A DNA stretch of 64,000 nucleotides from a virus: IMG/VR virus record IMGVR_UViG_3300010397_000002, positions 1 through 64,000 of that record; one strand, written 5' to 3'. Made by a program: the position numbers and the translations under genes. Numbering within the stretch: the stretch's first letter is position 1; each line of letters opens with the position of its first letter. Positions 11,771 to 63,896 of this stretch are shown piece after piece. The notes under the pieces were generated by a model. It searched no databases, was not told the DNA's origin, and saw only the letters and a list, made by a program, of their open reading frames with translations.

Positions 11771-13231
11771 TTACGCAGCCGGTTGTAAACGCTGACCTAA
11801 GATAAACTTAGATGCAGCAACCACCCGGGTGCCTTTGCTTGAGCGAATATGGATACGTCTCACGTTCTGATCATCCGTAGGAGTATCAGCCATGGCTCCA
11901 GTAGTGAACATTTGATAATGTCCGCGTGAACCACCTCCGATAGATTTCTTCCACATGATAGTGAATGCATCTTTCATGATACCTGTTTTCGCATCTTTTG
12001 TTTTATCCATAGGAGCGATAATGAAGTACCAAGGATAGTTAAATCCAGGAAGTGCGGTAATATCAGGATGGTTCAGGATCATAAGTTCCTTCACATTGAA
12101 TGTGAATCCACCAATTTTTACTTGGTCAATATTCAAATCAACTGTAGACCGGTTGTACACCAAGCTACCATTAACTCCGAATTGAGAGATAATGTCCTTT
12201 GCTTTCAAAAGGAATTCATAACCGCATTGCAATAAACATTCACGGCCTTGGTTCAATTTCCGGCGAAGACGGATAATTTGTTCGAACAATGCCATCGTTG
12301 GATTGTTGTCATAGTACAGTTTAGGCGCATTCAACTCCAAGTTAGGCATGTAACCTTGAGTGGTAGAGATTGTAACAGCCAAGCCGTTTTTATCAAAACC
12401 AGGGATTGCAGTACCAAAAGGAGTGAGGAAAAGACCAGCTTGTTCCATGAATGCAAAGCGCATTTCAGTATCAGAGAATCCACGTGGATAAACGAAATTG
12501 ATTTCCTTTCCTTGATACACAAAAGGATAAGTTTCGTTGGTCGCTTCTATGTCGGTTTGATCATAGTAATCCGCAAAACGTTGGATGTAATTGGTGAACG
12601 TTTTGCTGGTTGGAGAGATACCTTTTTGCATTCCATAAGACGCCTCCTCGAAAGCAGAGCCTATTACTGCAAATTGATCACCACCATAAACACCAGCGGC
12701 ATTGGTAATTGTATTGGTAAGAGAAGGGAATGAAGACACAACCTTCACTAAATACAACCTATGAGCGCCTGCAATTGACTCTCTTTTACCGCTGATACGC
12801 CACACACCTTTATTTTTGAATTGGATCAATTGACCAGTTCTAGGGTATGAGTATTTAAGAGCAAGAGCTCCTGTTTGTGGACTATGGCTTATGGAGGCAA
12901 GTTGAACGTAGTCCAAACCTACATAAAGCGCATCATCTCCATTAACCAAGGATGCTGTCCCGAACACGTTGGCCTGGGTAGAATCAGTGTTGATGTAAGG
13001 AGCATCAAATCTCTTATTGGCTTCATGATGGATAATTTCTTCACCCTTCACTTCTTCCATAAGACCCATTTTGAACATTTCTCCGATATCTGTTTCCAGC
13101 GGATTGACGTCAAACATCGTTGGTCCAACTTGAGGTTTATGGATAAAACTCATTTGGGATATAAGCGGATTTTCTTCACGTGCTGCGACGGAGAAGTCCT
13201 GCCAGGTATTTACTTCTGTGAATAATGCCAT
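11771..13231 (-). CDS. Major capsid protein (crAss-like)
   Basis: 486 aa after the scaffold/portal genes; GSAFEEAS...FTNYIQRF motif; followed by a terminator. Confidence 0.8.
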   Translation of the reverse strand: MALFTEVNTWQDFSVAAREENPLISQMSFIHKPQVGPTMFDVNPLETDIGEMFKMGLMEEVKGEEIIHHEANKRFDAPYINTDSTQANVFGTASLVNGDDALYVGLDYVQLASISHSPQTGALALKYSYPRTGQLIQFKNKGVWRISGKRESIAGAHRLYLVKVVSSFPSLTNTITNAAGVYGGDQFAVIGSAFEEASYGMQKGISPTSKTFTNYIQRFADYYDQTDIEATNETYPFVYQGKEINFVYPRGFSDTEMRFAFMEQAGLFLTPFGTAIPGFDKNGLAVTISTTQGYMPNLELNAPKLYYDNNPTMALFEQIIRLRRKLNQGRECLLQCGYEFLLKAKDIISQFGVNGSLVYNRSTVDLNIDQVKIGGFTFNVKELMILNHPDITALPGFNYPWYFIIAPMDKTKDAKTGIMKDAFTIMWKKSIGGGSRGHYQMFTTGAMADTPTDDQNVRRIHIRSSKGTRVVAASKFILGQRLQPAA

Positions 13232-13299
13232 TGTTTTCGGTAGTTAAAGATTTTTATCCTCAACCTCCGATGTTGCACAATATTAAGTAACAAGAGATT

Positions 13300-15007: not shown

Positions 15008-17449
15008 TTATTTTTCTTTCGATTTACTCATTGCTTTCTTCGCGTCATTATCGGCCTTTTTTGAATCGTTTTCAGCTTTCTTTGCGTCACCTTCTGCCCT
15101 CACCTGAGCCATGGCATACTTCGGTTTATTCTCAACAGCCTTCTTAATGATCTCATCAACACTGGTTTGTTTGGCAATTTGCTTTTTAACCTGATCAGAT
15201 TTGTCAGCAATAACTCCTTCGAGTTCTTTAGTTCTATTGAGTATATCCACGTCAATTTTAGCCTTCAATTTCATCATCTCTTCCTCGGCCATTGCTTTGG
15301 CTTGAATAACTGCAATTTCTCCATCTGTCTTATCAGAAGCAGCTTGACGATTTGCATCCATAGCAGCCTGTTGGTTGGCGACATTAGCTTGCCCTGCCTT
15401 CCGTTCATTGATCTTAATACGGATACCAAGTATCTGACGTGCCTTCTTGAGATTTTTTATCTCGCGGATAAAAGCTACATCCAAATGAGTAAGCGTTCCT
15501 TTATCCAGACCAATTGCTAAATCTTGGAAGAAAGCTGCCCATTCTTGTGCCGATGGAGCCCGCACTAAAAATAATCCATAATCGCATAAAGCGATACTAT
15601 CCGGGATGGTAAAGTGACGTCCCATGGCAGGAATGAATCCTTCAATACCAACCCCATCTCGTTTAGCCTGCTGAACGAGCAGTAATAGTTGATTGGTCGC
15701 TGCCCGATACATATAGGTGTAAGAATTGAAAAGATACTCCATATCTAGATCACCAGTAGCTTGCGATTGCTCCATAACACGAACAGCCAATCTATCTGGT
15801 GTTTCTGTAGATTCGGCCACAGTGGTTCCAGTCATTTGCTCAAGCATATTTATCCCAGTAGTGAACATATTCAGATAATCAGCCATCATTAATCCAGATG
15901 GATTGTTACCTACCGCGCTGCTGGAATATCGCTGGTCATACTTATTTATCGGAGATCTTTTTACCAAGGTACCAGTTTGAAGGAAATGCTTGTAAACCTC
16001 GCGCGGAGTCCAAGACTTTCCTCCCTTGCCAAAAGCTACAGCTTCCAGTTGGGTAAAATCAATTTCTCTGGCGCCCATGAATCCTTGAGCAAGGATTTGT
16101 TTCATTTTATTCCAAGCCACATTGATCATAAATAAAGGCTCGATCATCTGTGCAGCAAAGCTCACAGTCCTTCCTTCTTTATAATTTGGGGCAAAGGTTA
16201 TGATCGGTAATACGCTATTTACCAAATTTAACCGTGGATATTCTTTACGGCCGTAACCATAAACTACGTGGCTATCCAATACCCAAGTGCCACCGTACAC
16301 ACTGGTATATGAGTTTTTAATAATATCATACTCTTGATCATCAGCGAATTTTGGATCATCTTGTCTTGGCTTCCAGTTCAGACCGCGTTCCATTATTGTC
16401 TTATTGCCAGCTTTGTTCTTTCTGGTAATGAATACTCGATCATCTTGGCTTAAATAGTAAAATCGCATCACTGGGATATAATTCAATCCATCAAATTTCT
16501 GGTTAAATCGGTTGATGGCGTAAGTTGCCGGAATGCTATTTTGATTAGCGTATTGCTGTATTACTCTTTCGATTTCATCTTCGGTTAAATAAGCTGAAGA
16601 TTCTTTACGGAACTGATTAACGGTGGGGAAGTCAAGATATCCTGCATATTCCTGGTTTTGGAAGTTCTCATCCTCAACATAAGATCCAATGTAATACTTA
16701 GGGTTTATCCGGTCGCATCTTGGGATCCCGTTTTCATCACGGTAACAATGCATATGTCCACGACCAATAACAACTTTGTCATTGGCAACCATCCGCATTT
16801 TCTGATTGAAATCATTGATTTGATGGATCAGTGCAATAGACAATTCACCATCAATAGCCTTTTGCAGCTTAGGGTTGGTGAGCATCTCATACATTAATTC
16901 ATCTGGATATTCAGGTAAAACATCCACATCTAAGTCGGGAAAGAAATCCCGGGGATTCATTTTTATGTCAGTTATCCACTTCCTGAACTCGTAGTATGTC
17001 TGAATATTGGCCTCATATGTCTTTTTCTCATGAACGGAGACAGGATCAATAGCCTCCAATTGTACCTCATATTGCAGGTTCATCATCTTAGCCACCGCAC
17101 GATTTATGTACTTTGGCGCCAGATTTAATACCTGAATATCCAGATAAGCCAAGCTTGAGGAACCATCGTCTGCCGCATCATTGTGAACATCCTTAAAAAA
17201 ACCGAACATATTTCTAAGGTTGTCTACGCTCTGTCTTCCTTGAGAAACCTCGATCAATGCCTGGTATTCGCTATCGTTCCAAAACCGAGATCCTCCGAAA
17301 CGCCCGCTCGAATAGTACATAGCCTTCGCGTATTGGAGTCCATATTCCGGCAGTTCCTTTATATTCGGACTTACAAATTCGTTTGGAAATACCGATCCTT
17401 TGACAGCAAAGTCAGAATCTACTAATCGTGTTTCTTCTGCAGAATCCAT
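15008..17449 (-). CDS. Portal protein
   Basis: ~810 aa after the terminase; likely start MDSAEE at 17449; SLAYLDIQVLNLAPKYINR motif and C-terminal Q/A-rich coiled coil typical of crAss-like portals. Confidence 0.8.
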   Translation of the reverse strand: MDSAEETRLVDSDFAVKGSVFPNEFVSPNIKELPEYGLQYAKAMYYSSGRFGGSRFWNDSEYQALIEVSQGRQSVDNLRNMFGFFKDVHNDAADDGSSSLAYLDIQVLNLAPKYINRAVAKMMNLQYEVQLEAIDPVSVHEKKTYEANIQTYYEFRKWITDIKMNPRDFFPDLDVDVLPEYPDELMYEMLTNPKLQKAIDGELSIALIHQINDFNQKMRMVANDKVVIGRGHMHCYRDENGIPRCDRINPKYYIGSYVEDENFQNQEYAGYLDFPTVNQFRKESSAYLTEDEIERVIQQYANQNSIPATYAINRFNQKFDGLNYIPVMRFYYLSQDDRVFITRKNKAGNKTIMERGLNWKPRQDDPKFADDQEYDIIKNSYTSVYGGTWVLDSHVVYGYGRKEYPRLNLVNSVLPIITFAPNYKEGRTVSFAAQMIEPLFMINVAWNKMKQILAQGFMGAREIDFTQLEAVAFGKGGKSWTPREVYKHFLQTGTLVKRSPINKYDQRYSSSAVGNNPSGLMMADYLNMFTTGINMLEQMTGTTVAESTETPDRLAVRVMEQSQATGDLDMEYLFNSYTYMYRAATNQLLLLVQQAKRDGVGIEGFIPAMGRHFTIPDSIALCDYGLFLVRAPSAQEWAAFFQDLAIGLDKGTLTHLDVAFIREIKNLKKARQILGIRIKINERKAGQANVANQQAAMDANRQAASDKTDGEIAVIQAKAMAEEEMMKLKAKIDVDILNRTKELEGVIADKSDQVKKQIAKQTSVDEIIKKAVENKPKYAMAQVRAEGDAKKAENDSKKADNDAKKAMSKSKEK

Positions 17450-17450
17450 T

Positions 17451-17768
17451 TTAGAATAGACGTTTAAAAAGTTTATACGGTAAGGCCATTTTATTATTTC
17501 CGGAGTCAACAAAAAGGTAATCCCCTTTCCGTCCGATCTCAAAGTCATTATCCATTTGCCGATATTTTATAGACTTCGGAGAGGAGATGGCCGCTTCAAT
17601 ATTGAAGAAGGCCCGCTTCTCTAAAGCCAAATCACGCTTGATGGTCTTGAATGGTTCGGCTGATTTACAAAAATGCCAGTCATTAACATGGTCAGGATTT
17701 AATTCCGCAACGCTAACATCTTCCTCCAAAATCTGCTCCATTGTCTTTCGGTCGTTATCTTTTGCCAT
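17451..17768 (-). CDS. Hypothetical protein between terminase and portal
   Basis: 105-aa ORF filling the intergenic space. Confidence 0.6.
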   Translation of the reverse strand: MAKDNDRKTMEQILEEDVSVAELNPDHVNDWHFCKSAEPFKTIKRDLALEKRAFFNIEAAISSPKSIKYRQMDNDFEIGRKGDYLFVDSGNNKMALPYKLFKRLF

Positions 17769-17799
17769 AAAAGTTGTGTTAATTAATCAAATTTAGCGA

Positions 17800-19941
17800 T
17801 TACCTGTTAACATTCCCATATTCATCAAATCCTGGCATAATATCATAGATGTCCATGGGTGGTAAAGTATATGTTTTAGGCTGAATTTTACCTCCAAGTT
17901 CAGTGAACCCTGCCGCTACCGAATAGTCATATTCAGTGGTTTTCTTAGGATTGAATACCAATAAATCTTCCACCAAATCAATGAAAGGAATGGTATGCCC
18001 CCAATACTCAATATACGTTGCAAGGGCACTTGTATACTCCTGAATGATCTGCCCGCTGGCCGGGGTACCGTCTGCGTACACATTTTTCCTTGTTCCTGAC
18101 TCAGCTATGTATTTCTGCAAAATAAAATCTCCGCACCCATGTTCAATGAAATAATTCATGATCCCTGGCTTTTGAGACTCAGCATGCAGTGAGCACCCGA
18201 AATACCACATCATCATCAGTGCCCGTTCAAAAAACACATTTGGATCATTCGGGCGAACGTCCATCATCGCGATGTATCGATTGGTCTTATACTGATACTT
18301 CTCTTTGGCGCGTTGCTCCAAAATATCCTGCGTCAATATCCCATCAATTGATGAATCGTATTTACGTTTTACGAAAAGGACTGGCTTTGACCGGCGAGTG
18401 CTGATATATTCTTCATCTCCTCCTTTACCTTCCACGACAACTCCGTGATCTACCGGATCGACTCCTGAAATAAATTTAGCATCATTGAGCGGAGCAAAGT
18501 TGGGTCTATCTCCTCCTAATTTTCTTTGTACTAGATTTGTTTCTTTTGCATCATTAATGAGTGAGTGTACCCATGCCCATCCGGTGTATTGATTTGGTCT
18601 GAACCTGACTTCTGTAAATCTCTTATTGTCTACCCAATAAAATTCTCCTTTAACAAGTATTGACTCTGCGATAGATTCAAGTTCTGATTTACGGTCTTGG
18701 AGGACAGTGGCGTTGAATTCGCAGCGGTCTGTGTTGATGTAAAAAATTTCTTTTAAGTATAATGGATACCTTCTTATAACACCAGACAATTCTTTTGGGC
18801 TATCCTTATAAGATTCTCTTTCAAGTAATATCCATTCTTTAGCTTCCTTCCTTAATGGATGACCCCATTGATCTAAAAAACTTTCGTGAGCGCAATCACC
18901 TGGAAGGAAACAAACATATAGTCCACTCTTCGTTCTTCCATCTGGTTGACGTTGATCGAAGTCACTTTCATAAAACATTTTTTTGTATGCTCTACCACCC
19001 TTACCAGTAGAATCCATAAATTCAACGGTGGTCCCTATGAAGCATTTTCCTCGTAACTCTTTACCTCTTCTTAAACAAGGCTTTACAACGGCCCATCTAT
19101 CGTTTACATTACAATTTAAAATTTTACCGGCCTCCTCCATTAAATAAGTGTGAAGGATGCTACCATCATACTCACTTACTCCACTTGATCTATAATCAAG
19201 TTTTGATTCTAAATCTATTGAGTCATCATAATCACCAATGACCATTGACTTACTCCTAGCTGCTGGCTGTTCAAATTTTATATCCGATGTTAAGGCTGAT
19301 GTTGTGTCGTACGTTGGTGTAAAATAATATGGAAGCTTCTTGAATGGAGACTTGATCATTTGAGTGTAAAACAATCCTGCTTTATGATCATTTTCTCCTT
19401 GGCAGCCTGTATAATGATTTCTATTTCGTGTCGTTCTGTATATTGCCCATCCTCCCATTAATGATGACTTACCATAACGACGAACAGTGTTGAATAATAA
19501 TCCATAAGAGTTTGGATCTTCTTCACAATACTTTAATAAATATGTAAGTTCTTTATCTGTCTCTCGATATGTTGGGAATCCGAATGTTGTTTGCCATGCT
19601 GTTAAGTACCAATAGTAAAACCCAGTGATGTAAGTTGGTGTGCCGTTATTCCAAAACCAAAATCCTTCTTCAGATCGATCCCACTCTTGATCTGCCCATC
19701 TATTTATTTCTGATTGAAGTGGGTGAATATAATTAGGATCAAGCTGAACTCTTTTCGCGTATTCCCTAATTGCTTTTTTAATTGTTTCGGTTGGGGATGG
19801 GCGGGTCCATTTTTGTTCATTGAAGAAATGTATTTTTTTATCAGATGGGACTTGTGGCAAATAAACACACGGAATGCCTTGTCCGGTTATCGCGGTGATT
19901 AAATATTTTAGTTGATATGGATTTTTAGTCTCCTGAAACAT
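17800..19941 (-). CDS. terL: Terminase large subunit
   Basis: Walker A-like RRYGKS, Walker B-like LMEEAGK, GTT coupling motif, RNase H-like SGVDPVD, C-terminal YDYSVAAG. Confidence 0.85.
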   Translation of the reverse strand: MFQETKNPYQLKYLITAITGQGIPCVYLPQVPSDKKIHFFNEQKWTRPSPTETIKKAIREYAKRVQLDPNYIHPLQSEINRWADQEWDRSEEGFWFWNNGTPTYITGFYYWYLTAWQTTFGFPTYRETDKELTYLLKYCEEDPNSYGLLFNTVRRYGKSSLMGGWAIYRTTRNRNHYTGCQGENDHKAGLFYTQMIKSPFKKLPYYFTPTYDTTSALTSDIKFEQPAARSKSMVIGDYDDSIDLESKLDYRSSGVSEYDGSILHTYLMEEAGKILNCNVNDRWAVVKPCLRRGKELRGKCFIGTTVEFMDSTGKGGRAYKKMFYESDFDQRQPDGRTKSGLYVCFLPGDCAHESFLDQWGHPLRKEAKEWILLERESYKDSPKELSGVIRRYPLYLKEIFYINTDRCEFNATVLQDRKSELESIAESILVKGEFYWVDNKRFTEVRFRPNQYTGWAWVHSLINDAKETNLVQRKLGGDRPNFAPLNDAKFISGVDPVDHGVVVEGKGGDEEYISTRRSKPVLFVKRKYDSSIDGILTQDILEQRAKEKYQYKTNRYIAMMDVRPNDPNVFFERALMMMWYFGCSLHAESQKPGIMNYFIEHGCGDFILQKYIAESGTRKNVYADGTPASGQIIQEYTSALATYIEYWGHTIPFIDLVEDLLVFNPKKTTEYDYSVAAGFTELGGKIQPKTYTLPPMDIYDIMPGFDEYGNVNR

Positions 19942-22959: not shown

Positions 22960-23061
22960 TTTGTCTCATCGACCAAGATCCCTCGCCACCAATCTAGCGA
23001 GGGACGACTCTGTTTTAAACCAATAAACTGCGGAACTCTCAAAACCGCAATCGCATATACA

Positions 23062-23081
23062 ATAGTAATATATATCACTAT
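23062..23081. promoter_or_regulatory. Operator-like palindrome, copy 1
   Basis: ATAGTAATATATATCACTAT (19/20 to the perfect palindrome ATAGTGATATATATCACTAT). Confidence 0.65.
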
Positions 23082-23351
23082 CTAATCCAAATTTAATAAC
23101 AAGAATTTTTCCCATGTGTCGATAGTATATACTTCTCCACCATGTTTGCGAATCTGTGAATGGACGTATTTTTGTAATTTTTCTGCATCTTTTTCTGGTT
23201 TTTTTACTTCAATTCTAATGGTTCTACCATTTTTTATAGCTTCTAAATCAGGCCATCCACTCTTTGAAACGATGATATGTTTAACGGCATACCATCCTCT
23301 TTTCTTTAAATGACTTCTTATCTTCGATTGAAGTTTTGATTCTAGAGCCAT
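23082..23351 (-). CDS. VRR-NUC family nuclease
   Basis: ESKLQSKI...GWPDL...IEVKKP...LQKYVH motif. Confidence 0.85.
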   Translation of the reverse strand: MALESKLQSKIRSHLKKRGWYAVKHIIVSKSGWPDLEAIKNGRTIRIEVKKPEKDAEKLQKYVHSQIRKHGGEVYTIDTWEKFLLLNLD

Positions 23352-25755: not shown

Positions 25756-25961
25756 AAGCTGTGCCTTTTAATATACAAATCCAACGAATCATTAATATCT
25801 CTTAACACTGTAACAAGAGACTTACTTTTTCCTTTTTTATATTCCTTCATCGCCTCCTCCATCCGCTCTTTACTGATGCGCTTAATAGGCACCTTCAACT
25901 TTGGCCGCATTTGGTTGTAGTCGAAAAGAGAAAATTGATGGTGAACTCGGATGAATTTCAT
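25752..25961 (-). CDS. Hypothetical protein
   Basis: 69 aa, coupled. Confidence 0.5.
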   Translation of the reverse strand: MKFIRVHHQFSLFDYNQMRPKLKVPIKRISKERMEEAMKEYKKGKSKSLVTVLRDINDSLDLYIKRHSL

Positions 25962-30669: not shown

Positions 30670-30912
30670 TTAGCCCAGCAATAATTTCTCAACGATGTTC
30701 ACGATATCACTAACCGTTTTAATATTATCTTCAACATCTGCATCCGGGATGCGAATGGAGAATTTTTTCTCGATCATGATGACAACCTCAATTTCGTCCA
30801 GACTATCCATGCCAAGGTCATCACGTAGATTTTCTTTTTCCTCAACGTGATCATGGTTTGTCACTACGCACAAGATGTTGGATACTGACTTTAAAATTTC
30901 TTCTCTGCTCAT
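30670..30912 (-). CDS. acpP: Acyl carrier protein
   Basis: [27 protein letters not shown]...IKTVSD with the phosphopantetheine Ser. Confidence 0.88.
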
Positions 30913-31130
30913 TAGCTTACTTTTTTATATGGATATTGTAGTTTGATATGTTCGTTTACGAACTTGCCGATTGATTTCACTTCAAGTGCCATGTCAAATA
31001 CGTGACGTGGTACATTAGCATAATCATATACCTTACCTGTAATGTAAGTGATGGTTAAAACTTTAGTTTTATCATCGTACTTAATGGCACGGACTGTGCT
31101 GGAATCGACGAATACTTTTTCGTTTGACAT
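30912..31130 (-). CDS. KTSC domain protein
   Basis: [12 protein letters not shown]...YDYANVP...[11 protein letters not shown]. Confidence 0.85.
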
Positions 31131-31132
31131 AA

Positions 31133-31337
31133 TTATATTGCTTCAAGGCAAGATTTCATTTTTAAAATAATTTCATCAATGGTTGCACCTTCAAATTTTT
31201 GTTCTGCTACTGTATTCCCATTTTTAAATTTAATGGTACCGCTGGCACTCCATTTATCATCGAAAAAACTTTTATTGAAATGGGTCTTTAATCACACTAG
31301 GCATTTTTTCGTTTCCAAAACCGATTAATAAATCCAT
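31133..31337 (-). pseudogene. Frameshifted small gene
   Basis: MDLLIGFGNEKMPSVIKDPFQ* continues in another frame as FNKSFFDDKWSASGTIKFKNGNTVAEQKFEGATIDEIILKMKSCLEAI*. Confidence 0.4.
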
Positions 31338-33190: not shown

Positions 33191-33733
33191 ATGCTACATC
33201 CCTGTTTACCTTCAACATTTACTCCAGAAAAATTAGCTGGATGGATTACTGATAATGCCATTGAGGTTCTTGATCATATTGAAAAGATAGAACTAGAAAC
33301 CGAACAGATTCACGAACTTGAAAGCAAATCATCCTTAGCTTCTAGAGCTATCGATAGATTGGAAAAAATAAAAAAAGATTTTATGGATATCTTAACAGAA
33401 GGAACGCCTGATGAAGAGAATCCTGTCGATATTATAATCTATCCGACTAAAGGTTTTAAAATCCTTAAAGCCAATCGGGCCTTCGCAGACAAGCAATTAG
33501 AACAAGGATTCCAAGAAGAAGTTATTCCTCTTTACATCATCCCATATCCTGAAGATTCACAAATGGTTGCTGTGGATATTGTTGGCAACGAATGGCCAGA
33601 GTTTACAAAGGATATGACTTCAGAGCAAATCAATCAACACAAGCCGATGTTGAAGAAGGATAAAAAAGTAAAGAAACAAACATCATTTTTAGATCAAGAA
33701 GATGATGATGAACAATCTACTCTGGATCTTTAA
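33191..33733 (+). CDS. Hypothetical protein
   Basis: 180 aa, acidic C-terminus. Confidence 0.6.
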   Translation: MLHPCLPSTFTPEKLAGWITDNAIEVLDHIEKIELETEQIHELESKSSLASRAIDRLEKIKKDFMDILTEGTPDEENPVDIIIYPTKGFKILKANRAFADKQLEQGFQEEVIPLYIIPYPEDSQMVAVDIVGNEWPEFTKDMTSEQINQHKPMLKKDKKVKKQTSFLDQEDDDEQSTLDL

Positions 33734-33950
33734 TACGCGCAACTTTAATATAATACCCTAGCTCAGTAATGAAGGGATTTATCGCATCATACAAAGCATT
33801 TACAAGTTTACTTTTCTCTAGTGCGTTCAAAGAAGTATAAGTGCCTTTGAGATTAGAGTAAACTTTATGATGAGCTACACCAGATTCTTTACAAAGGGCT
33901 AGTAAAGAGATAACGGAAGGTTTTTTTTTCTTTCTTTTAGTTTTTGCCAT
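33717..33950 (-). CDS. Small HTH-like protein, candidate repressor
   Basis: SLLALCKESGVAHHKVYSNLKG helix-turn-helix-like; lone - strand gene; TAATTTTG box at 33954-33961 and an operator copy upstream. Confidence 0.55.
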   Translation of the reverse strand: MAKTKRKKKKPSVISLLALCKESGVAHHKVYSNLKGTYTSLNALEKSKLVNALYDAINPFITELGYYIKVARIKDPE

Positions 33951-33974
33951 ACCCAAAATTAGTATAATATATCA

Positions 33975-38518: not shown

Positions 38519-38621
38519 ACTTTTTTACCTTCAATCCCTCTAGTCAAGTTTTATCCCGAGTGCAACGTATGATTTACCCGATTTTTTGGTCAAAATTCCC
38601 ATCCTTTAATTTTTAACATCT

Positions 38622-40196
38622 ATGGATGAGAAGAAAAAATATGATAAAAAATCGACCAGCTTAAGGCTAATCCCTCGCGATATTAGTGAATCGTTAGGAA
38701 AGCTGCCACCACAAGACATTGCTCTGGAAGAGTCTGTCCTTGGTGCCATCATGCTGGAGAAGCCCGCAATAGATACGGTTAATAAGTTTTTAACGCCTGA
38801 ACACTTTTACTCAGAGGCTCATAAAGAAATTTATACTGCTATCCTGGCTTTAAAGACAAACAATGATCCCATCGACATGCGGACCGTTGTTGACATCTTG
38901 CGAAAGACCGGGAAAATAGAGTTGGTTGGAGGGGCTTATTATATCGCCGAACTAACATCTAAAGTTTCTTCCGCTGCTAATATTGATTATCACGCTCGAA
39001 TCATTGTGGAGATGTCGATCAAGAGATCGATGATTGAACTGGCCAGCCGAATACATGAACAGGCTTATGGTGATACGGACTGTTTTGAATTATTGGAGGA
39101 TGGGATTAAGAAACTGCAGCATCTTCATGACTCATCTACTTTAGAGAATACTGAAGCCAAAATAAAAGAGCTATGGAAAGAACGCCAACTCACCATAGAA
39201 CCGCCTGCCGAAATCCCTCTCATCACAATCAATGGTGTCACAGTATGTACCGCTGAAAACCATTCTCTCATCATCGGGAAGAAAAAAAGCCGTAAGACTT
39301 TGTTTATCACATGGCTCATCCATCAGTTTTTTCTCCAAAACAAAGGTAATGAAAATGATATTCTTCTTTTTGATACCGAGCAGGGCAAGTCCCACGTATG
39401 GAAAGTCCGTAAAAAAATAAAAAAATTGACTGGCTTTGAACTCCCAATATTTTACATGCGCGGCATGTCTCCAAAAGAACGCCGGGATTTTGTTGCCAAT
39501 ACCGTGAAGTACTGGCCGAAGAAACCAAGGATTATTGTTATCGATGGTGTGCGAGACATGATGAGTAACATTAATGACGCAGATGAAAGCACTGAACTTA
39601 TCGTTTGGCTTGAACAAATTATTCTCACCTACAATCTTCACATCGTTGAGGTCCTCCATCAAAACAAAACGGATAATAATGCCCGTGGGCATATCGGCTC
39701 TGAGTTGCTGAACAAAGCTCAAGTTACTATTGAACTGGAACTCGATGAAAAGTCTGGTGTTACGATTGTGAAGTGTGAGAGCTCTCGCGAACGCGACTTT
39801 GAAACATTCTCCTTCACCCATGGTGCCGATGATTTGCCAGAAATTGTGGGAATGCCAATTCAAGGAAAAATTATACCGAATGATACTCGCAGGGCAATGC
39901 TAGTTGAAATATTTGATGATGGCCCAATGAAGTATAAAGAACTGATCAAAGAAATGATGACCACATTCGGAGTATCAAAAAATAAATGTGAGTTTATGGC
40001 TAAGGAGTTTAATCGTATGGGATGGGTTATCAAGTCAGGAAAGCGCGGTGACCCGACTTCGTTGTGGAAGCTTGCGATATCGGAGAATGGGCACTCACAA
40101 GAGCACGGAAATTTAATACCGTTCGCTGAAGCTGTGAAGCAGGCTGAGTTGTTTGATAATGGGCAAGATGATAAGCCAGAAGATATGCCTTTTTAA
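38622..40196 (+). CDS. Replicative helicase-like: DnaB N-terminal domain + RepA-type AAA + wHTH tail
   Basis: LPPQDIALEESVLGAIM...HFYSEAHKEIY (DnaB-N); GKKKSRKT Walker A, FDTEQG, IVIDGVRD Walker B, ARGHIGSEL; DMPF end. Confidence 0.8.
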   Translation: MDEKKKYDKKSTSLRLIPRDISESLGKLPPQDIALEESVLGAIMLEKPAIDTVNKFLTPEHFYSEAHKEIYTAILALKTNNDPIDMRTVVDILRKTGKIELVGGAYYIAELTSKVSSAANIDYHARIIVEMSIKRSMIELASRIHEQAYGDTDCFELLEDGIKKLQHLHDSSTLENTEAKIKELWKERQLTIEPPAEIPLITINGVTVCTAENHSLIIGKKKSRKTLFITWLIHQFFLQNKGNENDILLFDTEQGKSHVWKVRKKIKKLTGFELPIFYMRGMSPKERRDFVANTVKYWPKKPRIIVIDGVRDMMSNINDADESTELIVWLEQIILTYNLHIVEVLHQNKTDNNARGHIGSELLNKAQVTIELELDEKSGVTIVKCESSRERDFETFSFTHGADDLPEIVGMPIQGKIIPNDTRRAMLVEIFDDGPMKYKELIKEMMTTFGVSKNKCEFMAKEFNRMGWVIKSGKRGDPTSLWKLAISENGHSQEHGNLIPFAEAVKQAELFDNGQDDKPEDMPF

Positions 40197-43599: not shown

Positions 43600-43919
43600 G
43601 AGATCGTTGCTCTAATGGGCTGTATTGAAGCCGAAATATTCTGTAAGGATGGGCGCTTGCGCCACCCGGTACCCCAGGCCCCGGTCGATCGATCATTGGG
43701 CAAGTCGGTTTTTCAGACCCGGGGGCCTCGAAAAAGAAAAAATATTTTTGCAAGCATTATGCTTATTGCTATATTTGAGCGGAAACAAAGCGTTTCTGTT
43801 GTTAGAGAGTAAAACAAACTCTAGTTTAATTGACAACGAGTGCAACAATAGAAAATTTGGCGGTATATGTCTCAAAATCAACACATTATTCCCATTCTGG
43901 TTCTATTTAACATAAGGTA

Positions 43920-46936: not shown

Positions 46937-46975
46937 CCAGACCGGTTTTACTTAGTCGTTTGCCGGTCTGGTTTT
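46937..46975 (+). terminator. Terminator-like hairpin with a 17-nt loop antisense to the early leader box
   Basis: CCAGACCGG-TTTTACTTAGTCGTTTG-CCGGTCTGG-TTTT. Confidence 0.7.
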
Positions 46976-47010: not shown

Positions 47011-48426
47011 ATGATACTGCATTACATAAATAACAAATTAATTGGAATTGCTAATGAAAATTTATTCTCGGTTAATCTTTTTGATTATCAGTTATTACAG
47101 CAAGACATCATACAAGAAATAGATAACTCTCGGTGGGTTGATAATCATATCTTAATTATAGATAACAAAAAACGATATGAGTTTACGCATAGAGAAGAAA
47201 AAATTTATCTAGGCGATGAACTTATAAGTAATGATTTTAGAGATTTATTTATATCTCTGATTAATCCTGAAATGTGTAGACTGAAAAACAGATTTAAAAC
47301 ATTTACGGATTAACCATCTTCAAAACCTTTCGGTGTATAGGCCAACCGTTGATTTAACTGCAAACTAAATTTAAAACAATGAAACCAACAACTAAAATCC
47401 TCAAAGTATTCACCACCTATTGGACTAAGCAAAGGTATGCACTAGTTCGTATCAATGGAGTTGGTGTATTTATTAAGCTAAACTTTTTAACTGCAAACTA
47501 ATTATGAAAACAATAGACTTACATAAAAATTACATCCTCATTCATAAATTTCGTTATCCAGATGAGCCCATGAAGCAATGGGTTGTAGAAGATGAAACAT
47601 CAATCGGGCAGTATCACAATGATTGGAATGAGTTGATGGAAGTAGTTGATAAGATTGAATCATTAGGTTATGATTCTGGTATTTGTGGCGTAGTAATTAA
47701 AAACGAAAAACTGACAGAGATACTATTTGCCCCACAAGTCAAAAGTAATACCATAGAGGTTCATACCAGGACAAGAAAATCAAAAATAATGGCTACGTAT
47801 GAAGCTGTTGTTATGTGGATAGAATTACATGGAGAAGAAATCCTTAGAGCAAACTAATTATGAAAACTGAACAACAAGTTTTATTCGAAGCAAAAGCAAT
47901 TTTATTTGGCCTATTAGTTAATAAGTCTGATAGTGAATTAACACTTGTTGAAGCTGAGATTTTAGAGGCTATTTCCAGGGATCACCAAATCCAAGAGAAA
48001 CTTAATCTCCCCAAAGATCAAGCTGAAATTGATCGAAGACTGAAAGAGCGAAACACAATCACAAAGCACAATAGCGAATTTCCTTTACCGCCTTACGAAT
48101 CGTATGAAAAAGAATAGACTCCCGCGCAAACTAAAAAAGAAAATTAAAAATCGTCCAAACTTTTTAATTAAGAAGCTGGCGAAAGAAAACGGGCATCTCA
48201 TTTAATCGACTCAAGAAAAATTATAAAGAACGGAAAGATGACCAACACCGAAAAAATAGACACCTTCTTCCATAAGCTTACAGAGGATGAGAAACATGAG
48301 TTAGTATGTCGAAGTGCAAACAGCCAATGGAATTGGCAAACTAATACTGTGATTTTGGGTTGGAGCTCTATGAAGCATTTAGAAAAATACCAAGAAATGT
48401 TAATCACTAAATATTACAACAAATGA
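47011..48426 (+). CDS. Small early genes (47011-47313, 47379-47501, 47504-47857, 47860-48117, 48238-48426)
   Basis: Consecutive ORFs, most preceded by GCAAACTAA. Confidence 0.6.
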
Positions 48427-49133
48427 AAGATGCAATTGGCGACCGAATGAAAAACTACTATGAAGATAGAACAAGATTCTCTCTCATTCGCAGATCATAC
48501 ACGATCATACGCATAGATGGCAAAGCATTTCACACCTACACAAAAGGACTGCAAAGACCTTTCGACGATCAGTTAATAAATGATATGGATCAAACCGCAT
48601 GCTTTCTTTGTAAAAACATTCAAGGTGCTAAGTTTGCATTTGTTCAGTCAGATGAGATTTCAATATTATTAACTGACTTTGAGGAATTAACTACTGATGC
48701 TTGGTTTGATGGTAACATTCAAAAAATGGTTAGTGTATCGGCCAGCTTGGCAACTGCAAGGTTTAATGAATTGCGACCTAGCAAACTAGCTTTTTTTGAT
48801 TCACGCGTATTTCAAATTCCAAGTAAAATTGAGGTAGAAAATTATTTCATTTGGCGCCAACAAGATACTGTTAGAAATAGCATTCAATCTACTGCTCAGT
48901 CAGTGTATTCACACAAAGAACTCGAAAATAAAACCACGGATCAGCAACAAGAGATGATCTTTCAGAAGGGTATAAACTGGAATGATTACGAACCAAAATA
49001 TAAAAGAGGGCGAATTATTCTTAAAGAAAATTATTTGAAAGAATATGCTATTAGAAGTCGTTGGATAAGTTCGGAGGCCCCCACATTCACCAAAGACAGG
49101 GAATTTTTATCAACTAAAATTCCTATCTTATGA
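48423..49133 (+). CDS. thg1: Thg1-like (tRNAHis guanylyltransferase family) 3'-5' nucleotidyltransferase
   Basis: IGDRMKNYYE, IRIDGKAFHTYT, QSDEISI, FDSRVF, WRQQD..RNS, GINWND. Confidence 0.9.
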   Translation: MKDAIGDRMKNYYEDRTRFSLIRRSYTIIRIDGKAFHTYTKGLQRPFDDQLINDMDQTACFLCKNIQGAKFAFVQSDEISILLTDFEELTTDAWFDGNIQKMVSVSASLATARFNELRPSKLAFFDSRVFQIPSKIEVENYFIWRQQDTVRNSIQSTAQSVYSHKELENKTTDQQQEMIFQKGINWNDYEPKYKRGRIILKENYLKEYAIRSRWISSEAPTFTKDREFLSTKIPIL

Positions 49134-49717
49134 TCCGAGGCTACGCCCGCGTTTCCACCCAACACCAAGACCTTGGCCGACAGATCCAAGACCTCAATCA
49201 ATACGGTTGTGAGATCATCTACCAAGAGAAGATTTCAGGCAAACTAAATAAGAGACCTGAGCTTGATAGGATGCTTGAAGAGATGCAAGCGGGTGACGTG
49301 ATTGTCATCCATAAGCTGGACCGACTAGGGCGCTCCCTTCAGCATTTGATTGAGCTTGTGAACACGTTCAAGGACCGAGGCGTTGACTTTATATCGCTCA
49401 AAGATAACTTCAACACCACCACCCCACAGGGCAAACTAATTTTCAATATCATGGGCTCCATCGCAGAGTTTGAGAGAGAGCTAATATTAGAGCGAGTGAA
49501 CAGTGGCATAAAGCACACTAAAATCCATGGCACTAAAACAGGACGGGCACATGGTAGGCCAGACAAAAGCAAGGACCCGAAAACTATTGAGGATGTTGTT
49601 AATTTATATCAATCTGATACAGCGATAACGGTTAAAGAAATTTCGGAAAAGATGAAGATTAGCAGACCAACTGTTTATAAAATTTTGAGGCAAAACACCG
49701 AATTAGTCATTCGTTAA
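49130..49717 (+). CDS. Small serine recombinase (resolvase/invertase)
   Basis: GYARVST..Q, KLDRLGRS, AEFERELI.ER..G, GRP, C-terminal HTH ISRPTVYK. Confidence 0.92.
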   Translation: MIRGYARVSTQHQDLGRQIQDLNQYGCEIIYQEKISGKLNKRPELDRMLEEMQAGDVIVIHKLDRLGRSLQHLIELVNTFKDRGVDFISLKDNFNTTTPQGKLIFNIMGSIAEFERELILERVNSGIKHTKIHGTKTGRAHGRPDKSKDPKTIEDVVNLYQSDTAITVKEISEKMKISRPTVYKILRQNTELVIR

Positions 49718-49777
49718 ACAAAAACTTTATACCTAATAATCAGGTATTTAACTAATAATTGTTACATAGTGCATTAG

Positions 49778-49802
49778 ATAGTGATATATATTACTATATT
49801 TG
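49778..49802 (+). promoter_or_regulatory. Operator-like palindrome, copy 5, overlapping a TATATTTG -7 box
   Basis: ATAGTGATATATATTACTAT; 25-nt identity (reverse complement) to 23062-23086. Confidence 0.7.
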
Positions 49803-61486: not shown

Positions 61487-61726
61487 ATGGCTACCAACAT
61501 TTTAATCGACGTGTACGAATTCAGCACCGGTATGGAGTTGAACCAAAAATACACTCAACCATTTGTGGCTGCTGAGATTACGTATCAACCAGCCAGTATT
61601 TACAATTTCAAGAACGTTTATTTTACCGGCGTTCGGTCTAAAATCACGTCCAAATTTGGCGGCATTCTGAAAGACTACTATGTAGCTCAGACTCCAGCAC
61701 AGATCAAAACGCTCTTAGACGCCTAA
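61487..61726 (+). CDS. Small protein, possibly virion-associated
   Basis: 79 aa with its own terminator (AAAGCCC/GGGCTTT, 61730-61759). Confidence 0.6.
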   Translation: MATNILIDVYEFSTGMELNQKYTQPFVAAEITYQPASIYNFKNVYFTGVRSKITSKFGGILKDYYVAQTPAQIKTLLDA

Positions 61727-61799
61727 TTTAAAGCCCTTCGATTTACTTCGTTGGGCTTTGCTTTGCCTAAATATTTATCAAATATAACATTTTTTTTAA

Positions 61800-61824
61800 A
61801 TAGTCATATTTATCACTATTTTTG
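61800..61824 (+). promoter_or_regulatory. Operator-like palindrome, copy 6, with a TATTTTTG -7 box
   Basis: ATAGTCATATTTATCACTAT (18/20) just upstream of ATG 61829. Confidence 0.55.
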
Positions 61825-61828
61825 TTTT

Positions 61829-62623
61829 ATGATTTCCATCCTCCAAGACTATTTCACCGTATCCATCGAATCCCGTTACAACGAGACTAAATCCAAATCA
61901 GGCATTATCCTGGTAAATACTGCATGGATTGACGATACGGAGATGGACCGCAATGAACATAAAAGAATTTATGGTACTGTGCTGGCCGTACCTGAGGTGT
62001 TCTCTGATACTCCCTACCGTGCTATTGATGATGGAATGCCAGCGTATCACAAGTATGTAGGACATGACGATATTGTAGATAAGATCAACCGAGGATACAC
62101 AAACCACAACGACAAATCTTACTACCCGAGCACATTTGAGCGATACACCGTGGTGACCATGGAGGATATTGCCAAGAACATTGATATTAAAGTTGGCGAT
62201 AAGATTTATTTCTTACCTCAGTGTACAGAAGATGAGCACATGATGGAGAAGAAAAAAGGAGAGGAGATTTACCGGATTAATGTCAGTGAGATAATTTGTG
62301 TGGTTAGAACTATGATTCTTACTGATCGCACAAATAGCATTGAGGTTGGTTTTGAGAGAAGAATCATCATGCAAGGCGAATGGGTACTCATCAAACCAAA
62401 CACCGAATCATGGTCAGAGATCACCACCAAATCAGGCATTATTATGAAGCCACTACCAACGGCTAAATGGCTTGAGGGAATTGTGGCGCACAGCAGGCAT
62501 AAGCATTTAAAAGTTGGCGCTAAAATAGTTTATCTGCCTAATGCTGACTGTCCAGTGAAGATTGAGGATGAAGATTATTATGTGATGCCTGCGCAGGATA
62601 TAATTGGGGAATTAAAGTCATGA
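61829..62623 (+). CDS. Tandem GroES-like domain protein
   Basis: Two units: ETKSKSGIIL...GTVLAVP...IKVGDKIYF and WVLIKP...TTKSGIIM...GIVAH...LKVGAKIVY...IEDEDYYVM..QDI. Confidence 0.7.
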   Translation: MISILQDYFTVSIESRYNETKSKSGIILVNTAWIDDTEMDRNEHKRIYGTVLAVPEVFSDTPYRAIDDGMPAYHKYVGHDDIVDKINRGYTNHNDKSYYPSTFERYTVVTMEDIAKNIDIKVGDKIYFLPQCTEDEHMMEKKKGEEIYRINVSEIICVVRTMILTDRTNSIEVGFERRIIMQGEWVLIKPNTESWSEITTKSGIIMKPLPTAKWLEGIVAHSRHKHLKVGAKIVYLPNADCPVKIEDEDYYVMPAQDIIGELKS

Positions 62624-62667
62624 GCGCGAGTCCATCCAATAAAAAAGCTTAACAAACAATAAAATAT

Positions 62668-63522
62668 ATGATAGGTATTTATCACAACCGTGATCTTGAC
62701 GGATTCGCATCTGGGGCGATAATAAAGAAAAAATATCCTGATGCGAAAATGATTGGATATGATTATGGGCAACCACTTCAATTAGAAGCTAATGGTGATT
62801 CCGTTATTATGGCTGACGTATCATTGCCCATGAAGACAATGTTAAAAATAGCCCAAATGGCTAATTATAATTTTACTTGGATCGATCATCATATCTCTGC
62901 AATGAATGATTATGAATTATTTGTTGGTAATGGTGAGTCTTTCTGTACGGCCATTTTGGATTCTAAAATATCAGCATGCGAAGGCACTTGGAAACACCTT
63001 TTCCCTAATGAAGGTATCCCAAAAGGAATCCAATTACTCGGTGAATACGATACATGGAGAAATGGTGATATAGAAAAGTGGAACAATGAAATTCTTCCAT
63101 TCCAGTTCGGCATCCGAATGTACTGCAATTCACTTGATACTTTCCCAGATAATGTATTTTGGAATGAGGACTGGATTAGAAAAGTGATAGAAAAAGGCAA
63201 AACAATTCTTCAATACCAAGCACAAGTAAACGAATCAGCATGCAATAAGTCTGCTTTTGAGTTTAATTTTGAAGGACTCAAGGCAATTTGCTTAAACGGT
63301 GGTGGATTTAATTCCGATGTTTTTAAATCTGTCTATAATGAAGAGATACATGATATTATGATGCCATTTGTTTTTAATGGTAAGTTCTGGGTAATTAGTC
63401 TGTACACAACAAAGGATATTGATTGCTCAAATATTGCTAAAAAACATGGTGGAGGAGGTCATAAAAAAGCTGCCGGATTCCAAGTTTATGATATTAAGAC
63501 CATATTCACAAACATGAAATAA
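62668..63522 (+). CDS. DHH/DHHA1 phosphoesterase (NrnA-like)
   Basis: HNRDLDG, MADVS, WIDHH, YDTW, GGGGHKKAAGF. Confidence 0.88.
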   Translation: MIGIYHNRDLDGFASGAIIKKKYPDAKMIGYDYGQPLQLEANGDSVIMADVSLPMKTMLKIAQMANYNFTWIDHHISAMNDYELFVGNGESFCTAILDSKISACEGTWKHLFPNEGIPKGIQLLGEYDTWRNGDIEKWNNEILPFQFGIRMYCNSLDTFPDNVFWNEDWIRKVIEKGKTILQYQAQVNESACNKSAFEFNFEGLKAICLNGGGFNSDVFKSVYNEEIHDIMMPFVFNGKFWVISLYTTKDIDCSNIAKKHGGGGHKKAAGFQVYDIKTIFTNMK

Positions 63523-63548
63523 AAAACCCCAGGAATAAATCCCTGGGG
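63521..63548 (-). terminator. Intrinsic terminator of the - strand lysis transcript
   Basis: CCCCAGGGA...TCCTGGGG-TTTTTT on the minus strand. Confidence 0.7.
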
Positions 63549-63602
63549 AAAAAGGCTTCAATCTTCGGAGTGCAACGTCGGAAGACGGATTTGATTACAA
63601 AA

Positions 63603-63896
63603 CTAATCAGTTTTTTCAACTTTCTCCACTTTTGTCTTTTCAGTGGTAGTTGTCGATGAAGATACCTTACCAGCCCTGAAATCTATCACCTGTTGTAAGG
63701 TTATAATTCCCATGCATAATAATGCGAACAGCAGCCAAGCGATAATAACATCAACCAATATTTTTTCATCACAAAATCGGAACGTTGCAATCATCGCTAC
63801 CATTACGCCAGCGAAAGCACTGAGCTTCCTGGCAGAAAAACCTTCCGTCTTACTGTTGTTATTAAAACTATTGTAGATGTCATCAATAAGTTTCAT
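63603..63896 (-). CDS. Putative holin
   Basis: 97 aa, SARKL then two TM helices, charged C-terminus. Confidence 0.6.
   Translation of the reverse strand: MKLIDDIYNSFNNNSKTEGFSARKLSAFAGVMVAMIATFRFCDEKILVDVIIAWLLFALLCMGIITLQQVIDFRAGKVSSSTTTTEKTKVEKVEKTD

Follow-up and report, generated by a model that had tools for sequence, protein, structure and literature searches.

Base-pairing small RNAs (sRNAs) of bacteria such as CpxQ, SroC and DapZ are derived from the 3' untranslated region (3' UTR) of an mRNA or share its terminator. Antisense RNAs displayed in loops of 7-8 nucleotides (nt) are known from the CopA/CopT pair of plasmid R1, the RNA I/RNA II pair of ColE1 and OOP of phage lambda, whose promoter is located at a gene's 3' end; the c4 RNA of phages P1 and P7 blocks translation through loops that match short leader boxes. 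Phage T4 acts on groups of its own mRNAs through RegA, a translational repressor, and RegB, an endoribonuclease that cuts GGAG; its late promoter, TATAAATA, is a single-element phage promoter, and in T4-type phages cassettes of promoters and stem-loops shuffle genes. Hosts of the phylum Bacteroidota do without Shine-Dalgarno-based initiation, and to our knowledge only a handful of base-pairing RNAs have been studied in this phylum, none of them from a lytic phage. The -7 promoter box of the Bacteroidota primary sigma factor is TAnnTTTG; for the phylum, base-pairing sRNAs that target initiation regions and candidates derived from UTRs are on record, either demonstrated or mapped, and GibS is a trans-acting sRNA of Bacteroides thetaiotaomicron (PMC7366714). 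Here we analyse the first 64 kb (the window, 64,000 nt) of the 77.3-kb virus contig IMGVR_UViG_3300010397_000002 from a soil metagenome, hereafter G000, in which a small hairpin between a holin-like gene and its terminator displays a loop complementary to a short box in the leaders of four genes. The best reading of this arrangement, which we favour tentatively, is a terminator-proximal antisense RNA of ~75 nt that would pair with the sense leaders.

A search with the capsid protein yielded six related contigs, all syntenic with G000 and 65-74% identical to it in the alignable parts of their DNA. Two of them are complete genomes (G001, 77.2 kb, and G002, 77.9 kb), two are partial genomes (G003 and G004) and two are fragments (L001 and L020). 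The hairpin module itself was compared in three sequences only, those of G000, G001 and G002.

On the minus strand, positions 63585-63562 read TCTTCCGA-CGTTGCAC-TCCGAAGA, as quoted in the original prediction, and fold into the hairpin listed in Table 1. After a spacer of 12 nt follows the intrinsic terminator, which abuts the end of a plus-strand DHH gene. The 96-nt stretch holding hairpin and terminator has a z-score of -3.2 against shuffles, and the GCAC of the loop is unpaired with a probability of 0.77. The same module is present in G001 and G002, with GCAC in the hairpin loop (unpaired probabilities of 0.92 and 0.99), a spacer of 8-15 nt and the U run of the terminator on the holin strand. 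The order of stop codon, hairpin, spacer and terminator is common to G000 and its two complete relatives and has the architecture of an sRNA that shares a terminator, and the hairpin and the placement of the box complement in its loop are kept at ~60-70% identity.

The box itself, GTGCAAC, stands in the leaders of the genes for the capsid protein and a DnaB-type helicase and of two further open reading frames (ORFs), orf43920 and orf30912, and in all four it is in sense orientation to the downstream gene. Three of these leaders had been named in the original prediction, and their boxes were found in the sense orientation described there; the fourth, that of orf30912, was missing from its list. 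The capsid leader can pair with the hairpin at 14 of 15 positions, as had been claimed, through 13 Watson-Crick pairs and one G-U pair with one C.A mismatch. This pairing is bipartite, involving the box and UCGGAGG against the 5' stem arm, and the bipartite arrangement GTGC-N-TCGGAG, with a spacing of 1-8 nt, is seen at two sites only, in the capsid leader and at the junction. The product of the capsid gene, which adjoins the genes for portal and large terminase, belongs by its match to a family of virion structural proteins; the helicase carries a DnaB N-terminal domain. Small hairpins lie 7-21 nt upstream of the box in several cases.

Table 1. Positions of the junction module and of the leader boxes in G000 (numbering of the window).
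Feature	Position	Strand	Description
Holin-like gene	63603-63896	-	97 amino acids (aa), two hydrophobic helices, stop TAG; last gene of a long minus-strand late block
-7 box TAGTTTTG	63598-63605	-	Perfect TAnnTTTG; overlaps the holin-like stop codon, 11 nt before the hairpin
Hairpin	63561-63586	-	Stem of six outer pairs (the closing one a G-U) and two inner pairs, separated by a C.C mismatch; 8-nt loop
Loop	63570-63577		CGUUGCAC on the minus strand (anti-box), GTGCAACG on the plus strand (box)
Intrinsic terminator	63521-63548	-	9-bp G+C-rich stem, then U6; in the orientation of minus-strand transcripts
Capsid-leader box GTGCAACATCGGAGG	13264-13278	-	Ends 33 nt before the ATG at 13231; GTGCAAC core 13272-13278, 40 nt before the ATG
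Helicase-leader box GAGTGCAACGT	38558-38568	+	GTGCAAC core 38560-38566
Upstream ORF of helicase	38569-38616	+	15 codons, from the nt after the box to 5 nt short of the helicase ATG at 38622
orf43920 leader box GAGTGCAAC	43838-43846	+	GTGCAAC core 43840-43846; ends 73 nt before the ATG
orf30912 leader box GTGCAAC	31182-31188	-	Fifth intergenic box; 51 nt before the KTSC-domain gene 30912-31130

Within the one genome the link between loop and boxes is modest. GTGCAAC is not enriched overall, with 8 copies in the window against 4.7 expected and 9 of 100 shuffles reaching 8, but its distribution is biased: five of the eight copies are intergenic, in a window with ~11% non-coding DNA (binomial P = 6e-4). 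Four of these five lie upstream of a same-strand gene and the other one lies in the hairpin at the convergent junction. In the motif statistics proposed as a check in the original prediction, placement departs from chance and abundance does not. The short cores TGTGC and GTGCA have no intergenic enrichment, and an analysis of 6-mers in upstream regions was dominated by A/T-rich words. Perfect complements of the hairpin 24-mer in 116 leaders are at most 11, 9 and 8 nt long; among composition-preserving shuffles, a longest match of 11 was reached in 16 of 1000 and the summed top three in 7 of 1000. When the duplex energies of the whole 3' UTR with the leaders were compared to those of shuffles, they were no better. 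In a crude empirical test, 20% of the intergenic 24-mers, mostly A/T-rich ones, score as high as the hairpin; the test is uninformative because A/T-rich windows and terminal repeats dominate it. Given the 8192 possible 7-mers, the single-genome evidence is insufficient alone, and the link is taken as more than chance because it is conserved in the relatives.

In the capsid leaders of six relatives, TGTGC is the sole invariant run of five columns, the mean column identity otherwise being 54%. One fragment at 71% identity keeps TGTGTGAAC-TCGGAAGG in its capsid leader, and the box is lost from the leaders of relatives at ≤65% capsid identity. The helicase leaders of four genomes (G000, G001, G002 and G003) share (T)GTGC followed by an ATG after 1-5 nt. 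This ATG is the start codon of the helicase in G001 and G003 and opens a short upstream ORF in G000 (15 codons) and G002 (24 codons); these ORFs end at the helicase start or, in G002, overlap it. The box-adjacent ATG in G001 and G003 gives a longer helicase, whose N-terminus in G001 has a primase-like CPxC zinc-finger region. Upstream of the orf43920 homologue of G001, GTGTGCAT is found at a distance of 329 nt. In the leader of its orf30912 homologue, the G001-type box recurs over 18 nt, of which 15 are identical, with a single 1-nt gap.

The boxes of each genome also drift together. All five intergenic sites of G000 read GTGCAAC, with a variable preceding base. In G001 the corresponding word is GTGTGCA, of which five of seven genomic copies are intergenic, all in sense orientation (P = 1.7e-4), and in G002 the copies read TGTGC(A/T). 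The same change separates G000 from G001 at four orthologous sites, namely the capsid and helicase leaders, the junction and the region upstream of orf43920, and the core shared by the boxes of a genome equals the content of its own loop: GUGCAACG in G000, UGUGCAU in G001, and UGUGCUG, the complement of CAGCACA, in G002. When a 26-nt holin-strand RNA from each genome was paired with the leader boxes of all genomes, the best duplex was that with the own-genome RNA in 6 of 8 tests (the chance of at least 6 of 8 being ~0.02). All three capsid leaders pair best with their own RNA (-22.7, -22.3 and -22.3 kcal/mol), and the capsid leader ranks second of 116, third of 102 and first of 103 leaders in the three genomes. 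Complementarity also tolerates changes in spacing, unlike a rigid protein site: in the G002 capsid leader, 8 nt separate the half-boxes that are 3 nt apart in the loop RNA, and the G001 orf30912 leader carries the gap mentioned above. We conclude that loop and boxes probably belong together in function and that one shared trans-acting partner would recognise them and co-evolve with them. The set of loop and leader boxes put forward in the original prediction is in this respect real and evolutionarily coupled in the relatives; as to the covariation it called for, own-genome pairing and a core that tracks the loop speak for it, but the equal resemblance among the leaders and the substitutions without a wobble bias do not.

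Several features of the genome fit a host from the Bacteroidota. This assignment is made because a Shine-Dalgarno-like 4-mer precedes 6 of 94 genes only, positions -14 to -10 before the start codons are A-rich, canonical TAnnTTTG boxes occur at ~1 per 2 kb per strand, and a relative falls into a Cyclobacteriaceae bin. The latter, L112 (DATJHZ010000497.1, 77,957 nt), is 100% identical to G002 over the 2.3 kb compared and was binned with a Cyclobacteriaceae metagenome-assembled genome, a weak hint at the host. TAnnTTTG stands 3-5 nt before start codons at 33717-33956 (minus strand), 47011 and 61829 in G000, at 17284-18030 in G001, and at 25782, 26565 and 73431 in G002; transcription would therefore start 4-6 nt downstream of such boxes and many mRNAs would be leaderless. 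In G001 these -7 boxes are often preceded by the palindrome GTAACAnnTGTTAC, which we read as a putative operator. The -7 box at the end of the holin-like gene may be the own promoter of the hairpin RNA; at the equivalent site, G001 has TATAATTG and G002 has TACAATTG. A conserved canonical -7 box is also located upstream of the gene or genes preceding the capsid gene (orf14659 in G000, the orf13300 homologue in G001), and because of its position there the capsid box is most likely transcribed.

A mechanism can be proposed from these elements. The end of a minus-strand RNA would be encoded between the holin-like stop codon and the terminator, either as the 3' UTR of the late or lysis transcript or as a separate RNA of ~75 nt (~63596 to 63521) started from the -7 box. 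Its first hairpin would present the 8-nt loop as an antisense seed; by a loop-to-strand "kissing" contact, which the stem arms could lengthen, this seed would pair with the sense box (GA)GUGCAAC(GU) in the four mRNA leaders. At the helicase leader the duplex would end directly at an AUG, and pairing is predicted to block helicase initiation because this AUG is the helicase start in two relatives and that of the coupled upstream ORF in G000. At the capsid leader the duplex would lie 33-47 nt upstream of the start codon and more likely affect the structure or stability of the mRNA. We infer that the RNA is made, that it pairs with the leaders and what sign its effect has, while the elements themselves, their conservation and co-drift and the accessibility of the loop are shown by the sequence analysis. 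The throttling of capsid and replication genes by a lysis-transcript RNA, put forward in the original prediction, gains no support here; the overall reading to which it belongs is partly supported.

A second motif family in G000 has the same layout. AAACGACTA occurs in five exact plus-strand copies (44580, 44912, 45528, 45917 and 45935), all in sense and most of them separated by 5 nt from a start codon. A single inverted copy forms part of the 17-nt loop in a terminator hairpin on the same strand (46937-46975, 9-bp stem). This is the other pair to which the original prediction had pointed, and its loop/box arrangement holds in this genome. Because only ~9% of the intergenic 7-mers lie in a simple hairpin loop, it is unlikely that both families place their sole inverted copy in a loop by accident. 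A model of double-strand DNA binding does not predict this placement for either inverted copy.

Not all observations agree with an antisense RNA. In the three genomes, folding on the opposite, box-bearing strand (-8.5, -7.7 and -7.0 kcal/mol) gives a hairpin that exceeds the stability of the one on the holin strand (-7.3, -5.5 and -4.3 kcal/mol) by 1.2-2.7 kcal/mol; several G-U pairs exist on the box strand only and become A.C on the other. In the stem sequences, conservation predominates over covariation. Against some leader, control strands attain top duplex energies of a similar level, similarity among the leaders is as high as their similarity to the loop (10 nt are common to helicase and orf43920), and substitutions between loop and leaders show no bias in the wobble direction, 18 being wobble-compatible and 19 not. 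For capsid, orf43920 and orf30912, 33-73 nt separate the box from the start codon downstream. In G001, finally, a 101-aa ORF (16488-16793 of G001/L006, minus strand) with its own bidirectional terminator is located between holin stop and module, on the strand opposite to the holin-like gene and with no homologue in G000 or G002; the junction box lies 69 nt upstream of this ORF and in sense orientation to it, like all other boxes. These points weigh against an antisense RNA, and several of them suit a sense box that is read by a protein on DNA, either as a promoter-proximal element or as the operator of a phage regulator. Such a DNA motif for a phage factor, already named as the alternative in the original prediction, is a live rival and the strongest one, although we consider it unlikely. 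It might be a -7 box variant, with yAnGTGTG in place of TAnnTTTG, that serves a modified or alternative sigma factor. The junction copy would then be the opposite-strand start region of a gene that G001 has and that G000 and G002 have lost, with complementarity as a by-product. The boxes face the downstream gene in 4 of 4 leaders of G000 and in 5 of 5 exact copies of G001, a small hairpin or terminator often precedes them as at operon boundaries, and 2-3 nt separate the box from the helicase ATG, much as in leaderless promoters, where the ATG follows TAnnTTTG after 3-5 nt. In an alignment of 8-mers whose last two bases are the TG of the GTGC core, the boxes of the relatives matched 3-5 of the six specified -7 positions, TACGTGTG and TATGTGTG reaching 5. 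At four of the five G000 boxes, as in GAGTGCAAC, only 2-3 of the six match; in the capsid leader of G000, TAATATTG matches 5 of 6, two bases upstream of that alignment. Neither a -33 element nor any other fixed-distance partner is found at the boxes, whose distance to the start codon ranges from 0 to 329 nt, and transcription from a plus-strand promoter at 63570 would do no more than run antisense through the late genes. Upstream of the capsid gene there is already the canonical -7 box mentioned above. A protein on DNA also leaves unexplained why the junction copy stands in a loop beside a terminator in three genomes and why the second family has an inverted loop copy. No sigma factor or RNA polymerase was found among the 46 phage proteins scanned with PHROGs and/or Pfam, a scan outside which many small proteins fall.

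It is very improbable, in our view, that the box acts in the sense RNA as the site of a sequence-specific RNA-binding protein or endoribonuclease, following the logic of RegA and RegB. Polycistronic transcripts would be cleaved or tagged by such a protein at the capsid, helicase and other leaders, and likewise where the plus-strand operon ends whose transcription passes the weak side of the terminator. The sense orientation, intergenic position and variable distance of the boxes to the start codons fit this idea, the hairpins 7-21 nt upstream would protect the 3' end of the upstream fragment, and the G-U pairs favour folding of the plus strand. The junction copy could then be assigned to the 3' end of the operon 61487-63522, on whose strand the terminator is without a U run. 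No candidate protein was identified, however, the other boxes lie in no consistent structure (unpaired probability 0.01 to 0.8), and neither a conserved core that tracks the loop content nor the inverted same-strand copy of the AAACGACTA family is explained. An absence of any common function also appears improbable: each site would be conserved for local reasons, the junction copy would be a relic or the set would descend from an old duplication of a short cassette, and the complementarity would be incidental. The statistics of the single genome would allow for this (7 of 1000 shuffles, and about as many equally biased 7-mers expected among the 8192), as would the short cores without intergenic enrichment, the loss of the box from the more distant capsid leaders and the insertion of a gene beside the module in G001. 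It is at odds with the concerted change of the core at four orthologous sites between G000 and G001, a capsid box that is invariant in otherwise diverged leaders, the hairpin and loop placement kept in three genomes, and own-genome duplexes that are best in 6 of 8 tests. The antisense RNA thus remains the reading that we tentatively prefer.

Extended further, the antisense reading would make operon-terminal hairpin loops routine trans-acting anti-leader RNAs of Bacteroidota phages, with the boxes as "addresses" of the leaders. In the present phage, the late or lysis RNA would couple the capsid gene, the primase-helicase gene and two further genes to late transcription, and the AAACGACTA family would do likewise for an early operon, as part of a general post-transcriptional timing code; we regard this extension as somewhat unlikely. 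If the RNA reading is true, the phage would encode a multi-target antisense regulator in Bacteroidota, in which an 8-nt loop links transcription of the lysis block to the expression of capsid and replication genes, and together with the second family this would represent a common, undescribed way of timing gene expression in phages of this phylum. If instead a protein reads the box, the latter would define a small conserved regulon, and possibly a non-canonical class of promoter, in an unstudied family of ~77-kb soil phages. Under either reading the element is short and conserved.

The gene in front of the hairpin was labelled a holin in the original prediction. Its product has no PHROG or Pfam match, and because it matches no family, the putative identity as a holin is based on three features: small size, two hydrophobic helices and the last position in the late block. 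The genes beside it encode a DUF5675 protein and proteins of unknown type, and relatives of the holin-like protein occur in 75 IMG/VR contigs. In a distant lineage of this family (among L069, L072, L073, L084 and L087), TGTGCAAC stands directly after the stop codon with the next ATG 10 nt on, and sister contigs have TACTCAAC at the same place, which may be a coincidence. A search against Rfam 15 gave no match at the gathering threshold in the whole window. Sub-threshold matches to generic sRNA and terminator families at 63519-63636 of the minus strand had a top score of 23.7 bits (Ref84, threshold 52) and a lowest E-value of 0.0019 (anti-hemB, 22.5 bits against a threshold of 49.5). As identities of the boxes, a sigma-54 (-24/-12) promoter, a CRP/FNR site, an NtrC site, an ECF-sigma promoter, a DnaA box (TGTGnATAA) and the crossover site of a DNA invertase were rejected on inspecting the sequence, the required partner element or dyad symmetry being absent around them.

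Of the sequencing runs listed as containing the DNA of the window, all three are DNA runs, from soil and rhizosphere, and none is an RNA run. The search for further relatives returned few usable genomes. Scans of IMG/VR gave five close and eight distant relatives, a metagenome scan added two new short contigs only, and a scan of genome contigs returned solely a copy of G002. A pattern scan for the G001/G002-type box retrieved these two genomes and 14 chance matches. The genome comparison leaves out the contigs behind 16 close relatives of the capsid protein and seven of the holin-like protein. Five more distant genomes (G005-G009, 48-53% capsid identity) could not be used for covariation because they have neither the junction module nor a holin-like homologue; G009 has one marginal holin-like match (E = 0.004) at a non-syntenic site. 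In G000 the first ~90 nt (1-90) are repeated at the end of the contig (77200-77300), which represents either terminal redundancy or the overlap of a circular assembly. Elsewhere in the window, a small serine DNA invertase is encoded at 49130-49717 (phrog_125, E = 5e-67), directly followed by a 20-nt sequence (49774-49797) of which an inverted copy lies 26.7 kb away at ~23062 (23059-23082); this may mark an invertible segment or a recombination site. Further genes encode a Thg1-like tRNA-His guanylyltransferase (48423-49133, phrog_4717, E = 1e-87), a protein with a C-terminal GroES-like Cpn10 domain (61751-62623), and the small KTSC-domain protein of 30912-31130.

Among the described systems, the phage element is closest to the 3' UTR-derived or terminator-sharing sRNAs of bacteria and to loop-displayed antisense RNAs such as c4. 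Like the sRNAs, it follows a stop codon and precedes the intrinsic terminator of the same mRNA, has a short, conserved and accessible seed, would have several targets on other transcripts and possibly an internal promoter at the end of the parent gene, and its presumed host phylum uses base-pairing sRNAs without Hfq. It differs from them in being phage-encoded, in presenting the seed in a hairpin loop and not in a single-stranded 5' part, and in the position of three of its four target boxes 33-73 nt upstream of the start codon. With c4, CopA, RNA I and OOP it shares a loop of 7-8 nt that would start pairing with a complementary stretch of sense RNA, but whereas each of these has one neighbouring or overlapping target, a single loop would here serve four or five unlinked leaders on both strands, and no sequence or Rfam relationship connects the hairpin with any of them.

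Among the protein-based systems, RegA and RegB of T4 likewise recognise a short motif common to the leaders of a set of phage genes, for joint shut-off or processing. A complementary hairpin is needless in their case, their motifs overlap the ribosome-binding region, and a RegA or RegB homologue was not found in this phage. As with TAnnTTTG and the T4 late promoters, the boxes are short single elements in sense orientation upstream of genes, and in the relatives as many as 5 of 6 positions agree with TAnnTTTG and an ATG follows after 2-3 nt. They depart from TAnnTTTG in the 2-3 of 6 matches of the G000 boxes, in the reach of the conserved GTGCAAC into the would-be transcript start, and in the one copy that faces antisense late genes.

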